A stretch of 64,000 nt of DNA from Deltaproteobacteria bacterium (GCA_040218735.1 JAVJQW010000011.1:384001-448000); one strand, 5' to 3'; shown: positions 23,550 through 40,261, counted from the first letter of the stretch. The notes: generated by a model from the sequence alone, not told the origin. Made by a program: numbers and translations.

Positions 23550-24785
23550 GTGGTCGCCAAGAAGCAGGATCGGCTGTTCAACCCGAACGGCCGCAAGCAC
23601 TACCGGCGCAAGTACAACCTCACGGAGGTGCGGATCGGCGCGGCGATCTTGCTCATGCTCGGCGCCGTGCTGGCTTGGGTCCTGTACAAGGGCCAACACC
23701 CCGACCCGGAGATCTACGCATCGAGCCCCGGCCAGGCGAACCGCGCGCCGACCAAAGCGATCGAGCGCGGACCCGTGCCGAAGGGGCTCGCGATGGAGGG
23801 CTGGCGGGAGGGTGAGCTGTCGACCTTCGACGACTCGAACCTCTACGAGAAGATCGACGGGCGCGAGGGCTTCTACAAGTCGTTCGGCTTCCAGCGCCTG
23901 TACTTCATCGCGCTCGGGAAGAAGGACGACCTCGCGGTCACCGTCGACATCGAGCTGTACGACCTCGGCTCCGGCGCCAACGCGCTGGGCGCCTTCTCGG
24001 GGGAGATTCCGCCCAACGCGTCGCCCGAGATCGGGGACGGCGGTTTGTCGGTCATCGATCGCAACGCGCTGTTCATGACGCGCGGGCGCTTCTACGCGCG
24101 CGGCATCGGCGCGGACGAGTCCGAAGCGGTGAAGGCGCAGCTCGCGTTCACGGCGGACACGCTCGCGAAGGGCCTGGAGGGTGAGGCGCTCCCGTGGAGC
24201 TACGCGCTGTTCGTGAGCGGGCTCGGCATCAACCCCGGCAAGGTCTCCTACCAGCCGGAGAACGCGTTCGGGTTCTCGTTCGCGAACGACGTGCACACCG
24301 CGATGCTCGAGGACGGCGAGACGGAGGTCTTCGTGGTCTCGCAGGCCGACGCGGCGGCGGCGACGGCGCTCGCGAAGTCGTTCGACGAAGGGTTCCTTCA
24401 GTACGGCGAGGTCAGTAAGACCGACGCTGGCGTGAAGTGGGTCGCGGACCGCTACCTGAACCGGGTGTCGGGCGCGAAGGCCGCGGACGTGTTCGTCGTC
24501 GGCGTGCGCTCCGCGGAGGACGTCGAGAAGGCCCAAGCGGCGCTCGCCAAGCTGGAGGCGGCGGTCGCGAAGATGTCGCCGGAGCAGAAGGCCCGCGCGC
24601 TCGACAAACCGAAGATCACCGGGTCGGGCGGCTACGACGACGCGCCCGAGGAGGCACCGGCCGAGGGCGAGCCTTCGCCGGAGGGCGAGCCTTCGTCGGA
24701 GGGCGAGCCTTCGTCGGAGGGTGAGCCGAGCTACGAGGGCGAGCCGCCGTCCGAGGGTGAGCCGAGCTACGAGGAGGGGTACTGA
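23550..24785 (+). CDS. DUF6599-like membrane-anchored protein
   Basis: One TM helix; FDDSNLYEKIDG.EGFY.SFGF, DIELYD.GS..NALGAFS; acidic repeat tail. Confidence 0.7.
   Translation: MVAKKQDRLFNPNGRKHYRRKYNLTEVRIGAAILLMLGAVLAWVLYKGQHPDPEIYASSPGQANRAPTKAIERGPVPKGLAMEGWREGELSTFDDSNLYEKIDGREGFYKSFGFQRLYFIALGKKDDLAVTVDIELYDLGSGANALGAFSGEIPPNASPEIGDGGLSVIDRNALFMTRGRFYARGIGADESEAVKAQLAFTADTLAKGLEGEALPWSYALFVSGLGINPGKVSYQPENAFGFSFANDVHTAMLEDGETEVFVVSQADAAAATALAKSFDEGFLQYGEVSKTDAGVKWVADRYLNRVSGAKAADVFVVGVRSAEDVEKAQAALAKLEAAVAKMSPEQKARALDKPKITGSGGYDDAPEEAPAEGEPSPEGEPSSEGEPSSEGEPSYEGEPPSEGEPSYEEGY
24663..24770 (+). repeat. Six 18-bp tandem repeats encoding EGEPxx
   Basis: GAGGG(C/T)GAGCC(T/G)NNNNNN x6, in frame at the 3' end of the DUF6599-like gene. 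Confidence 0.9.
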
Positions 24786-25963
24786 TGAAGAACCTGACGC
24801 GGCGGCAGATGCTCGCCGTCGGCACGGGCGCGGTGGGTGCTTCGATGCTCGGCGCCACGATCGGCGCGACGCGCTTGGAGGCCGCCGAGCCGCAGGTGCC
24901 GAAGAAGCGCCTCGGCAAGACCGGCGTCGACGTCCCGATCCTCGCGATGGGGATGGCGATGAAGTTCCACCCCCGCTTCGACCCGCGCCTCGCGGAGGCT
25001 GCGCGGCTCGGCGTCACGTACTTCGACACCGGCTACGTCTACGCGGGGGGCACGGTGGAGAGCGCCGTCGGGAGCTTTCACACGCGCGCGCGCAACCGCA
25101 AGGCGCTGTTCCTCTCCGGGAAGACGGAGCGCCACGACCGCGTCGAGAAGGACCTGCAAGACGGCTTGCGCAAGGCGCGCACGGACCACTTCGACCTGTA
25201 CATGCTGCACGGGCTCGGCGACCCGAAGACGCTGAACGCCGACATGGCGAAGCTCGTCGAGCGCCTGAAGAAGGAAGGCAAGATCCGCCACTTCGGCTTC
25301 TCGTGCCACGACGGCAACGTCCCCGAGCTCCTCCAGCTCGCGGCGAAGACGCCGTGGGTGGAGGTCGTCCAGTTCCGCTACAACTTCCGGCAGTACGGCG
25401 ACAAGAAGCTCAACGCCGCGATCGACGCCGCCGCGAAGGCCAACGTCGGGCTCGTCGCAATGAAGACGCAGGGCTCGGAGGCGTCGTTCACCGACGCGTG
25501 GAAGAAGTACGAAAAGACCGGCAAGTGGAACAAGTTCCAGGCGGTGATGAAGGCGGTGTGGGCCGACGAGCGGATCACGTCGATCGTCTCGCACATGGAT
25601 ACGTTCGAGAAGCTGAAGTCGAACGCGAAGGCCGCGATGTCGCGCGGCGAGATGGGCGCGGCGGACTGGGACGCACTGGAGCGTTACGCGAAGGCGACGC
25701 GACACCTCGCGTGTGACGGCTGTGATCACCACTGCAGCGCGGCGCTCGATCGCTCGGTGCCGTCCGTGCCGATCGGGACGGCGATGCGGTTCTTGATGTA
25801 CCACGACGCCTACGGCGAGACGGCGAAGGCCAAGGCGCTGTTCTCCGCGCTGGACCGTGATGTGATTCGCGCCGCCGACTTCTCCGCTTGCCAGGCGGCG
25901 TGCCCGCACGGCGTGGACGTCGCGCAGCACATGGACCGCGCGAAGCGACTCTTCATCGTCTGA
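24785..25963 (+). CDS. Tat-signal aldo/keto reductase with C-terminal Fe-S motif (paralog 1)
   Basis: TRRQML Tat motif; [33 protein letters not shown]...CPHG. Confidence 0.9.
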   Translation: MKNLTRRQMLAVGTGAVGASMLGATIGATRLEAAEPQVPKKRLGKTGVDVPILAMGMAMKFHPRFDPRLAEAARLGVTYFDTGYVYAGGTVESAVGSFHTRARNRKALFLSGKTERHDRVEKDLQDGLRKARTDHFDLYMLHGLGDPKTLNADMAKLVERLKKEGKIRHFGFSCHDGNVPELLQLAAKTPWVEVVQFRYNFRQYGDKKLNAAIDAAAKANVGLVAMKTQGSEASFTDAWKKYEKTGKWNKFQAVMKAVWADERITSIVSHMDTFEKLKSNAKAAMSRGEMGAADWDALERYAKATRHLACDGCDHHCSAALDRSVPSVPIGTAMRFLMYHDAYGETAKAKALFSALDRDVIRAADFSACQAACPHGVDVAQHMDRAKRLFIV

Positions 25964-39065: not shown

Positions 39066-40261
39066 CGAAGAAAAAGGGACTCACGCGACGCGACCTGTTG
39101 ACGATCGGCGGCGCGGGCGTCGGCGCCGGAGCGCTCGTCACGATCGGCGGGACGAAGCCGGCGTTCGCCGCGAAGAAGGACGACCTGCCGCAGGTGCCTC
39201 GGAAGAAGCTCGGGAAGACCGGCGCCGAGATCCCGATCCTGTTGTTCGGTGGCGCGGTGAAGCTCGACAAACGCTTCGACCCGAAGATCGCGGAGGCGCT
39301 GCGGTTCGGCATGAACTACATGGACGCCGCGGACTGCTACGGCGGCGGCGCGAACGAGTACGCGGTGGGCAACTTCCTGCAGCGCTCACGCACGCGCGAC
39401 AAGTGGTGGATCACGACGAAGAGCGACCCCACCGACCCGGACGGCATCGAGGCGACGCTGAACAAGAGCCTCGAGAAGATGAAGGTGAAGAGCGTCGAGA
39501 TGCTCTACCTCCACGGAATCGACGACGTGAACGTGCTGACGACAGACGTCGCGAAGCGCGCCGAGAAGCTGAAGAAGGAAGGCAAGATCAAGTACTTCGG
39601 TTTCTCGTGCCACGGCGGCAGCGTGAACGACCTGCTGAACAAGGCGTCGACCCTCTCGTGGATCGACTCGATCATGTTCAAGTACAACTTCCGCACGTAC
39701 GGCGACAAAGAGCTCAACGCGGCGATCGACAAGTGCGCGAAGTCGAACGTCGGGCTCATCGCGATGAAGACGCAGGGCTCCGAGGCCTCGTTCGCGGACG
39801 CCTGGAAGAAGTTCGAGAAGACGGGCAAGTGGACGAAACACCAGGCGGTGCTGAAGGCGGTCTGGGCGGACGAGCGCATCACCGCGGCCGTCTCGCACAT
39901 GGATACGTTCGACAAGCTGAAGCAGAACGTCGCCGCCGCGTGTGACAAGTCGAAGCTGTCGTCGCTGGAGATGGACGCGCTCGAGAAGTACGCCGCGGTC
40001 ACGCGCTCGCTCGCGTGCGACGGGTGCGATCACCACTGCAACCCGGCCGTCGAGGGCGACGTGCTGATCGGCACGACGATGCGGTACCTGATGTACCACG
40101 ACCACTACGGCGAGACGGAGAAGGCGAAGGAGTTCTTCGCCGCCCTCCCCGACGCCGCGCGACGCCTCGAGCACATGGACTTCACGAAGGCCAACGCGGC
40201 CTGCCCGAACGGCATCGACATCGCGGCGCACATGGAGCGCGCGGTGAAGGTGCTGACCTGA
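39062..40261 (+). CDS. Tat-signal aldo/keto reductase with C-terminal Fe-S motif (paralog 2)
   Basis: TRRDLL Tat motif; [33 protein letters not shown]...CPNG. Confidence 0.9.

Follow-up and report, generated by a model that had tools for sequence, protein, structure and literature searches.

A four-gene cassette, interrupted in a deltaproteobacterial genome, as a candidate exported iron-sulfur oxidoreductase with a possible nickel-pincer aldo-keto reductase

The subject of this analysis is a set of five genes in a 64,000-nucleotide stretch of a Deltaproteobacteria bacterium genome (GCA_040218735.1, JAVJQW010000011.1:384001-448000), hereafter the window. They encode members of four protein families: a DUF6599 protein, a DUF362 protein with a signal for twin-arginine translocation (Tat), a membrane polyferredoxin built as a NapH-NapG fusion, and two copies of an aldo-keto reductase (AKR) with a tail predicted to bind an iron-sulfur (Fe-S) cluster. 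The parts of this cassette have published relatives (NphT, 2026; a dual-targeted polyferredoxin, 2017; NapGH; LarA), and the assembly has none. As the preliminary description of the locus had stated, no functional account of the cassette turned up in our literature search. The search yielded no paper mentioning DUF6599, none combining aldo-keto reductase, iron-sulfur and twin-arginine and, in the portions of the literature available to it, no functional study of DUF362; the combination of nickel-pincer and aldo-keto reductase led to the NphT paper only.

The periplasm is without reduced nicotinamide adenine dinucleotide (phosphate), NAD(P)H, and hydride chemistry in this compartment is thought to need pyrroloquinoline quinone (PQQ), flavin, haem or molybdenum enzymes. 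MsrPQ is a periplasmic system of molybdenum cofactor and haem b fed by the respiratory chain. The cassette resembles it in joining a putatively Tat-exported cofactor enzyme to a membrane electron carrier in a compartment devoid of NAD(P)H, the cofactors and folds being unrelated. MsrPQ is also named in the part consulted of Tooke et al. (eLife 2017, PMC5449189), where reporter fusions are described according to which the polyferredoxin PFD of the delta proteobacterium MLMS-1 is inserted by the Sec and Tat pathways, with its NapG half outside. The window polyferredoxin shares with PFD the NapH-NapG fusion, a twin-arginine motif ahead of a weak fifth transmembrane (TM) segment, positive charges and an outer four-cluster domain, a likeness drawn from architecture and not from sequence alignment; the same part of that article concerns membrane insertion only and mentions no function, partners, DUF362 or aldo/keto reductases. 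With the NapGH quinol dehydrogenase the likeness extends to both halves at the domain level and to clusters predicted on both sides of the membrane, whereas in the cassette the halves are fused, the scores lie far under the cut-offs and no nap genes are included. Compared with LarA, including the single-histidine LarA-like protein 9Q3J, the DUF362 protein is about 100 residues shorter and is predicted to be exported by Tat.

NphT (PDB 9YEB; Semersky et al., Nat Chem 2026, PMC13524815) is similar to the cassette AKRs in its AKR barrel, its catalytic tetrad and an aligned His/Lys pair (H144/K200 in NphT, H184/K236 in AKR2 of the window). According to the main text of that paper, NphT has 291 residues, is a monomer by size-exclusion chromatography, and transfers hydride from one sugar molecule to another without net redox change; its cofactor is tethered to Lys200, with the nickel on His144, in a site lined by Thr142, Ile199, Asp47 and His106. 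The same text mentions no Fe-S domain or signal peptide in NphT, contains none of the terms iron-sulfur, ferredoxin, 4Fe-4S, periplasm, twin-arginine and signal peptide, and gives as the discovery criterion of the family a larB/larC/larE neighbourhood, which the cassette lacks. Unlike NphT, the cassette AKRs have a putative Tat signal, a tail of about 100 residues with four Cys and an operon shared with a membrane polyferredoxin, and they stand beside lar genes in none of 80 loci.

The window has a G+C content of about 70%, so that open reading frames (ORFs) are by themselves weak evidence of genes, and the genuine genes were singled out by their third-position G+C. The genes of the cassette are the following:

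23550-24785, plus strand: DUF6599 protein, 411 amino acids (PF20244, E 1.7e-26)
24785-25963, plus strand: AKR1, 392 amino acids (Aldo_ket_red, E 5.8e-20)
36253-37317, plus strand: Tat-signal DUF362 protein, 354 amino acids (PF04015, E 6e-39)
37314-39065, plus strand: polyferredoxin (NapH-NapG fusion), 583 amino acids (thirteen Fer4-type Pfam families)
39062-40261, plus strand: AKR2, the canonical copy, 399 amino acids (Aldo_ket_red, E 1.4e-23)

All five reading frames are intact with conserved motifs, and all five proteins have Pfam matches well over the gathering scores (93.4 bits against a cut-off of 27 for DUF6599; 72 and 83.8 bits against a cut-off of 24 for the two AKRs with PF00248). The gene content claimed for the two loci, A (DUF6599 and AKR1) and B (DUF362, polyferredoxin and AKR2), is thereby confirmed, as are the overlaps of stop and start codons: TGATG between DUF6599 and AKR1, and ATGA both between DUF362 and the polyferredoxin and between the polyferredoxin and AKR2. 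The DUF362 start was placed at the GTG at 36253, which is backed by orthologues starting MSD... or MKD....

Relatives of the AKR gene were sought in about 186,000 species-representative genomes (one per species), where 468 stretches were found; the best 80 of these 468 loci were kept with 8-kb flanks and searched with the window proteins. Fifty-seven loci had at least 4300 nt upstream of the AKR gene and were counted as informative. In 49 of them the genes for DUF6599, DUF362 and the polyferredoxin lie immediately 5' of the AKR gene, in this order and on the same strand. The gene-neighbourhood analysis thus found the co-occurrence of the four families, and the earlier claim that they form one system holds in the form of a single operon. 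Among the eight exceptions, six are AKR genes with no partner in reach (L008, L017, L031, L038, L052 and L061), one has 4.5 kb inserted ahead of the AKR gene within the operon (L043) and one is an operon without DUF6599 (L081). Seventeen of the 23 loci with shorter upstream DNA carry as much of the operon as fits, two show no partner in their approximately 3.2-3.5 kb (L010 and L082), and four have less than 450 nt upstream and are uninformative (L041, L069, L072 and L075). The carriers belong to at least eight phyla, namely Myxococcota, Acidobacteriota, Gemmatimonadota, Eisenbacteria, Krumholzibacteria, Latescibacterota, Verrucomicrobiota and Lentisphaerota, across which the polyferredoxin shares 66-82% identity with the window copy, DUF362 62-79%, the AKR 53-66% and DUF6599 35-54%.

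When the 1549 candidate ORFs of these loci were clustered, the only recurrent families were the four and their antisense shadows, the next commonest flank family being protein kinases, in 9 loci. Kinases, PAS histidine kinases and a TonB-type receptor limited to one acidobacterial lineage also recur in the flanks. The flanking genes were considered as a clue to the substrate and discarded, nothing being conserved beyond the four families. A gene for a TonB-dependent-receptor-like outer-membrane protein of about 1000 amino acids lies directly 3' of the cassette in six loci (L034, L039, L041, L051, L055 and L072), all of Holophagales/Thermoanaerobaculia; this is apparently a lineage-specific synteny, though it might hint at an imported substrate.

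The window retains the canonical operon's gene order and strand: DUF6599 is followed, after a gap, by DUF362, the polyferredoxin and AKR2. It is therefore very probable that loci A and B are one conserved four-gene cassette broken by an insertion. The preliminary description had presented them as one system split into two loci, each with its own AKR. The genes stand as described; the loci are not independent, being collinear with the one operon found elsewhere, and an AKR per locus holds for this genome as a peculiarity of the genus and not as a rule, the canonical operon having a single AKR.

Concerning the wiring of the system, the NCBIfam models match the polyferredoxin over residues about 218-313 (NapH) and 368-561 (NapG). 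Both matches score under the curated cut-offs (NapG, 91.5 against 269; NapH, 78.1 against 234; TIGR02163, 79.4 against 213), and no nap genes were found near the cassette in the window. The NapH/NapG-like membrane polyferredoxin reported earlier is thus recognizable as a NapH-NapG fusion at the level of its domains, and because all of these matches fall below the cut-offs, its reactivity with quinone would rest on analogy, which counts against reading it as a quinone-linked carrier. Four strongly hydrophobic TM segments (30-48, 84-102, 143-161 and 218-236) are found in the first half, together with two CxxxCP motifs and two CxxCxxCxxxC motifs (269-304). The second half opens with RRR at 354-356 (RRRWAF), followed by a fifth segment under the hydropathy threshold and R..K, and then by a NapG-like domain with four Cys motifs (402-550). 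Four TM segments, twin arginines before a weak fifth one, positive charges and a NapG-like domain make up the layout expected of dual Sec/Tat insertion, which this polyferredoxin would accordingly share.

The other parts had been described as exported by Tat, and the twin-arginine motifs of DUF362 and of both AKRs agree with this prediction. With 19.5 bits, DUF362 exceeds the cut-off of the Tat-signal model TIGR01409 (16.7), and its twin arginines are at least 90% conserved in the alignment. No TIGR01409 match was obtained for the AKRs at E values up to 0.01; their N-termini read T-R-R-x-[LM]-L, with both Arg (residues 6-7 in AKR1, 9-10 in AKR2) invariant in 20 relatives, and two relatives carry PF10518. 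An exported, Fe-S-wired membrane complex is on this evidence the probable product of the cassette.

The Asp-Tyr-Lys-His tetrad is kept in both AKRs, as had been claimed (D88, Y93, K120 and H151 in AKR2; D81, Y86, K113 and H142 in AKR1), is invariant in a 20-sequence alignment and aligns in AKR2 to the tetrad residues of NphT and Tm1743. The CxxCxxxC...CP motif, also claimed for both, is present there (Cys310, 313, 317 and 373 in AKR1; Cys319, 322, 326 and 381 in AKR2) and in 78 of 78 full-length relatives. The structural model of AKR2 (predicted local distance difference test, pLDDT, 80.4) has AKR barrels as its top PDB fold matches (E about 5e-14) and a helical C-terminal region of about 100 residues. 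Since exactly four Cys are conserved in this region (78/78 loci), one cluster is expected, at a Cys4 site of the [4Fe-4S] type; the additional Cys368 of AKR1 is unconserved, and the AKR1 tail weakly matches the SdhB C-terminal domain (E 2e-4).

The evidence for the cofactor comes from the barrel. The best PDB sequence match of the AKR profile was the NphT chain 9yeb_A (E 3.8e-19), whose index equals the numbering of the paper plus 3, as verified on D47, H106, T142 and A20/A21. The alignment pairs AKR2 His184 with NphT His144, Lys236 with Lys200, Ser182 with Thr142 and Met235 with Ile199, with high posterior probability. Equivalents of His184 and Lys236 are found in 80 of the 80 related loci (His175/Lys227 in AKR1), the motif ending in the nickel-ligand-type His being S-C-H in 77 and S-T-H in 3. 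The main text of the NphT paper says that this His/Lys pair is absent from canonical AKRs (PMC13524815). The paper lists 798 putative nickel AKRs; two peptide motifs of the present AKR family were not found in the searched part of its supplement. A redox-active pair of Cys92 and Cys183 within the barrel was also considered and dropped, as Cys183 is Thr in 3/80 loci and Cys92, which adjoins the catalytic Tyr and is present in 18 of 20 aligned AKRs, is Val in AKR1. That the AKR carries a nickel-pincer cofactor seems to us an evenly balanced proposition.

The preliminary description had proposed another hydride carrier, a tightly bound nicotinamide, NAD(P)(H), kept as in glucose-fructose oxidoreductase or Kv-beta and recycled through the Fe-S chain. 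The invariant tetrad and the ordinary AKR barrel fold would suit it. The residues that hold NAD(P) in canonical AKRs (Asn, Gln, Lys/Ser/Arg) were nevertheless not found in this family. In the Tm1743 alignment, the position of the nicotinamide-carboxamide Asn is taken by Cys183 (Thr in 3/80), and that of the carboxamide Gln is probably Met205 by manual re-alignment, the HMMER alignment pairing the Gln with Val at a gap; we take the positions of Asn and Gln from AKR1B1 numbering. The Ile-Pro-Lys-Ser stretch, which presumably binds the pyrophosphate and 2'-phosphate in canonical AKRs, reads Val-Ser-His-Met. The His/Lys pair found in 80/80 loci also counts against a bound nicotinamide, and Pfam shows no flavin domain for the conversion of two-electron to one-electron steps. 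The nicotinamide is thus an unlikely cofactor and the earlier proposal is probably wrong in this detail, the carboxamide Asn being replaced and the NphT-type His/Lys being present, while its broader idea, a hydride carrier that the protein holds and Fe-S clusters recycle, still stands.

An argument for a cofactor that every cell makes comes from the cofactor-synthesis (lar) genes. The window genome has them: LarC (416.9 bits) adjoins a LarB-like AIRC gene on the minus strand (G000:C28:100529-102762), on a different contig from the cassette, LarE (306.7 bits; cut-off 150) is found on another contig (C70:345437-346216), and two LarA homologues lie at C41 and C21. Fifty-five cassette genomes were reached via the loci, seven of them being also in the set of related genomes with identical coordinates. 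LarC was found in 47 of these 55, and eight of the 55 have LarC and no Lar_N protein; something else in those eight therefore uses the cofactor. Several observations weigh against the nickel-pincer cofactor. No LarC match was found in eight of the 55 genomes, six of which form one Holophagales/Thermoanaerobaculia clade (L034, L046, L050, L051, L055 and L070); LarE over the cut-off was found in none of the five genomes tested from this clade, and the AKR and DUF362 motifs are intact there. This clade argues against an obligatory nickel-pincer cofactor, and fits bound NAD(P)(H). None of the 80 loci has larB, larC or larE at a distance of up to 8 kb from the cassette. Among the relatives, LarC is present in 11 of 12 genomes with the cassette versus 14 of 19 without it, and ordinary LarA homologues, able to explain the LarC, occur in 42 of the 55 cassette genomes. 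Because LarC is common without the cassette and most carriers have LarA homologues, its co-occurrence with the cassette is uninformative and was set aside as a test that does not discriminate. The motif evidence for the nickel-pincer cofactor is good and the genomic evidence only permissive.

The DUF362 protein is the second place where such a cofactor might sit. It has RRQFLK at residues 23-28, key residues K229, H231, K241, R251 and H255, and a LarA-type fold, PF04015 being in the Pfam clan of LarA. Among 122 diverse DUF362 proteins gathered from a search of 1.8 billion representatives, K229 and H231 are conserved in 100% and K241, R251, H255 and D277 in 99%, and its two Cys are unconserved. 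LarA homologues of the related genomes show the pattern His-x9-Lys-x15-His, which we take to be His174, Lys184 and His200 of the L. plantarum enzyme, and H231-x9-K241 of DUF362 aligns gap-free to its His-x9-Lys. The comparison has its adverse side: the profile-profile match is weak (E 1.9e-4, probability 48%), and H255 lies 2-3 residues off the LarA nickel-ligand His in the global alignment. An hhalign comparison with a narrow DUF362 alignment was too weak (E 0.036) and was redone with the 122 sequences. The first catalytic His position of LarA is Ile or Glu in DUF362 and the second catalytic His is missing; the DUF362 profile found no match among PDB sequences even at E 10, and Pfam reports no Lar_N match. 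From these alignments, DUF362 is a good candidate to be the second protein that bears a pincer cofactor, with only one catalytic His, and its case is weaker than that of the AKR. The window genome has a second strong DUF362 gene (G000:C46:137667-139379, PF04015, E 3e-38), with no adjoining polyferredoxin or AKR and with a Band-7 protein, an unknown and a PLD-like protein as neighbours, and three weaker DUF362 matches elsewhere.

The DUF6599 protein opens with a basic stretch and a single TM anchor (27-45); a periplasmic domain follows, and an acidic tail (about 360-411) closes the chain. This tail is an EGEPS-type repeat (24630-24782 in the window), similar in some Haliangium-type orthologues (L012, L015 and L022) and absent from most others. 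No conserved Cys or His was found in 26 orthologues, and the protein atlas neighbours were DUF6599 clusters only, with no functional lead. The pair of DUF6599 and AKR was chosen for a model of the complex because the split in the window keeps DUF6599 translationally coupled to an AKR. Residues 70-345 of DUF6599 and 41-399 of AKR2 were modelled, each with its own alignment, and reached a median interface score (ipSAE) of 0.75 in three runs, against 0.00 for the best of three controls. Of 157 solved complexes 116 score this high, as do 2 of 215 mismatched pairs; these counts apply only roughly, since own alignments were supplied here. The runs share at least 80% of contacts, with a partner pLDDT of at least 87. 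In the model, DUF6599 lies on the C-terminal face of the AKR barrel, the active-site face (residues 65-78, 90-100, 151-152 and 281-285), and invariant residues of both partners are found at the interface (F72, D73, P74, A77, E78, Y93 and H151 of the AKR; G104, R105 and E152 of DUF6599). The model supports the binding of DUF6599 to the AKR. Since DUF6599 has no conserved Cys or His, a role as anchor, lid or substrate-side subunit is likelier than one as redox carrier.

These properties also suit a reading in which DUF362, DUF6599 or both are non-catalytic and serve the AKR and the polyferredoxin as factors for maturation, export escort or anchoring. DUF6599 lacks conserved Cys and His and in the model covers the active-site face of the AKR like an escort or lid, and DUF362 lacks the second catalytic His of LarA. 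Yet DUF362 is more conserved across phyla than the AKR and has its own Tat signal, its invariant K/H/K/R/H/D set, kept among the 122 distant relatives, resembles an active or cofactor site, and DUF6599 has a stable membrane anchor. A purely auxiliary role for these subunits is, like the bound nicotinamide, improbable.

Taken as a whole, the proposal that the split cassette encodes an exported, Fe-S-wired complex in which a protein-bound nickel-pincer cofactor replaces free NAD(P)H is in our estimation about as likely as not. The complex would work as follows. The polyferredoxin would be inserted by Sec and Tat together, with two clusters inside the cell and four outside, and the AKR and DUF362, loaded with their cofactors in the cytoplasm, would be exported folded by Tat. 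The membrane-anchored DUF6599 would hold the AKR at the membrane from its active-site face. In the AKR, a nickel-pincer mononucleotide tethered to Lys236, its nickel bound by His184, would take the place of NAD(P)H, and the Asp-Tyr-Lys-His tetrad would serve to move hydride to or from a carbonyl or alcohol substrate. Electrons would pass between this cofactor and the four periplasmic clusters of the polyferredoxin via the AKR's own cluster, and onward to or from the quinone pool in the membrane or the cytoplasmic clusters of the polyferredoxin. DUF362, with a LarA fold and putative counterparts of the His, Lys and His of LarA, would be the second cofactor-bearing subunit. The steps of insertion, folded export and DUF6599 anchoring rest on homology; those of hydride and electron transfer we infer.

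Oxidation of an alcohol or aldose feeding quinone is the thermodynamically easier direction, and NphT acts on sugars; for these reasons we favour a periplasmic dehydrogenase, in which substrate oxidation (alcohol or aldose) would feed quinone. The splitting of hydride into single electrons is normally done by flavins, and we know of no enzyme that couples a nickel-pincer cofactor to Fe-S clusters, a further point against the proposal. More tentatively, the AKR and DUF362, proteins of unrelated folds, might both carry a lysine-tethered nickel-pincer cofactor, in the first such system outside the cytoplasm and wired to electron transport. The nickel would then pass hydride electrons singly to the Fe-S clusters, and the complex would be an alcohol/aldose:quinone or quinol:carbonyl oxidoreductase working without NAD(P)H, PQQ or flavin. 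We regard this fuller version as possible rather than probable. Quite unlikely is an AKR devoid of any pyridine cofactor, whose C-terminal cluster would react with the substrate in two one-electron steps, as in TIM-barrel/[4Fe-4S] enzymes such as IspG, with the tetrad as acid/base only: the four invariant Cys of the helical tail, the weak SdhB match of the AKR1 tail and the loss of the usual nicotinamide contacts agree with it, but it leaves the invariant Lys236 and His184, at the exact cofactor positions of NphT, unexplained, and Cys92 and the near-invariant Cys183 of the barrel are replaced as given above.

The history of the split can be followed in the related genomes. About 11.5 kb (24785-36252), starting with AKR1, part DUF6599 from DUF362 in the window genome. 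Beyond AKR1 this consists of a single block:

25964-36252, no strand assigned: intervening block, outside the system, which together with AKR1 separates DUF6599 and DUF362 (Pfam)

Based on Pfam, the block contains genes for a Na:alanine symporter, a GMC oxidoreductase, an amidohydrolase, an enoyl-CoA hydratase, a GDSL hydrolase (31677-32618, minus strand), unknowns and an isocitrate/isopropylmalate dehydrogenase. Queries with the alanine symporter, the GMC oxidoreductase and the isocitrate/isopropylmalate dehydrogenase gave no match beside the cassette among the matches listed for the 80 related loci. In its longest ORF the symporter gene shares 76 nt (25888-25963) with the end of AKR1, and its real start is probably further 3'. 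DUF6599 is present in 12 of 31 related genomes, all inside the family of the window. One genome of the same genus (G001) has DUF6599, AKR1 and the alanine symporter in the arrangement of the window, and in ten other genomes of the family DUF362 comes next after DUF6599, and then, where the flank reaches, the polyferredoxin. As gene order and strand match the canonical operon, the simplest history would be that about 11.5 kb (24785-36252), with the second AKR gene at the start, was inserted between DUF6599 and DUF362. The junction between the divergent dehydrogenase gene and DUF362 (36242-36253) forms the right-hand edge of this presumed insertion.

AKR1 and AKR2, the only two AKRs of this type in the window genome, are 53-55% identical. 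In a quick tree, AKR1 and its G001 orthologue stand on a long stem branch (0.71) and are not resolved as sisters of AKR2; in AKR1 the tetrad, the His/Lys pair and the four Cys are all retained. AKRs lacking partners occur at scattered positions in the tree, and such rearrangements have therefore occurred more than once. In-frame stops were seen in the AKR of L004 (8001-9185; a long-read assembly) and in the DUF6599 stretch of L016 (3991-5133), either as assembly errors or as broken genes; both rows were excluded from tree and alignment, L004 being the one dropped from the AKR tree.

Locus B starts 10 nt from the start of the divergent isocitrate/isopropylmalate dehydrogenase gene (35103-36242, minus strand), a distance that would place its promoter inside the neighbouring coding sequence. 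This uncertain promoter position speaks against a functional cassette in the window and, with the roughly 11.5 kb of unrelated genes, the divergent, long-branched AKR1 and the polyferredoxin that the window query did not find in G001 (75% complete and in 1480 contigs, for which reason the miss carries no weight), is what favours loci A and B no longer cooperating in this genome, the two being separate or one of them decaying; against the five intact frames with conserved motifs, the single DUF6599 and single cassette-type polyferredoxin context in the genome, the retained canonical order and strand, and the confident model of DUF6599 with AKR2, the copy of locus B, this is quite unlikely.

Two neighbours of the cassette may be mentioned. 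The gene of a GDSL-type hydrolase (22159-23538), on the strand of DUF6599, ends 12 nt upstream of it, and the two may be co-transcribed. A 739-residue ORF at 17249-19468 has a weak, sub-threshold match to a RoxA-like cytochrome c domain (E 1.7e-4).

The cassette is strongly conserved across phyla and has had no function assigned. We see in it a periplasmic oxidoreductase of respiratory type whose catalytic subunits are new and whose wire is NapGH-like, with a sizeable chance of new chemistry. What the window adds is the interrupted operon with its additional, divergent AKR, the DUF6599-AKR pairing, and the clade without LarC and LarE as counter-evidence. The split arrangement is itself useful, as it pairs DUF6599 with an AKR and the predicted complex agrees with this pairing. 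If both the AKR and DUF362 are nickel-pincer proteins, this cofactor, known from racemases and hydride shuttles of the cytoplasm, would extend to redox enzymes linked to the membrane as well. Many genomes make the cofactor although they have no LarA; such a use could explain some of them, here eight of the 55 cassette genomes, and it would give DUF362 and DUF6599 their first functional context.

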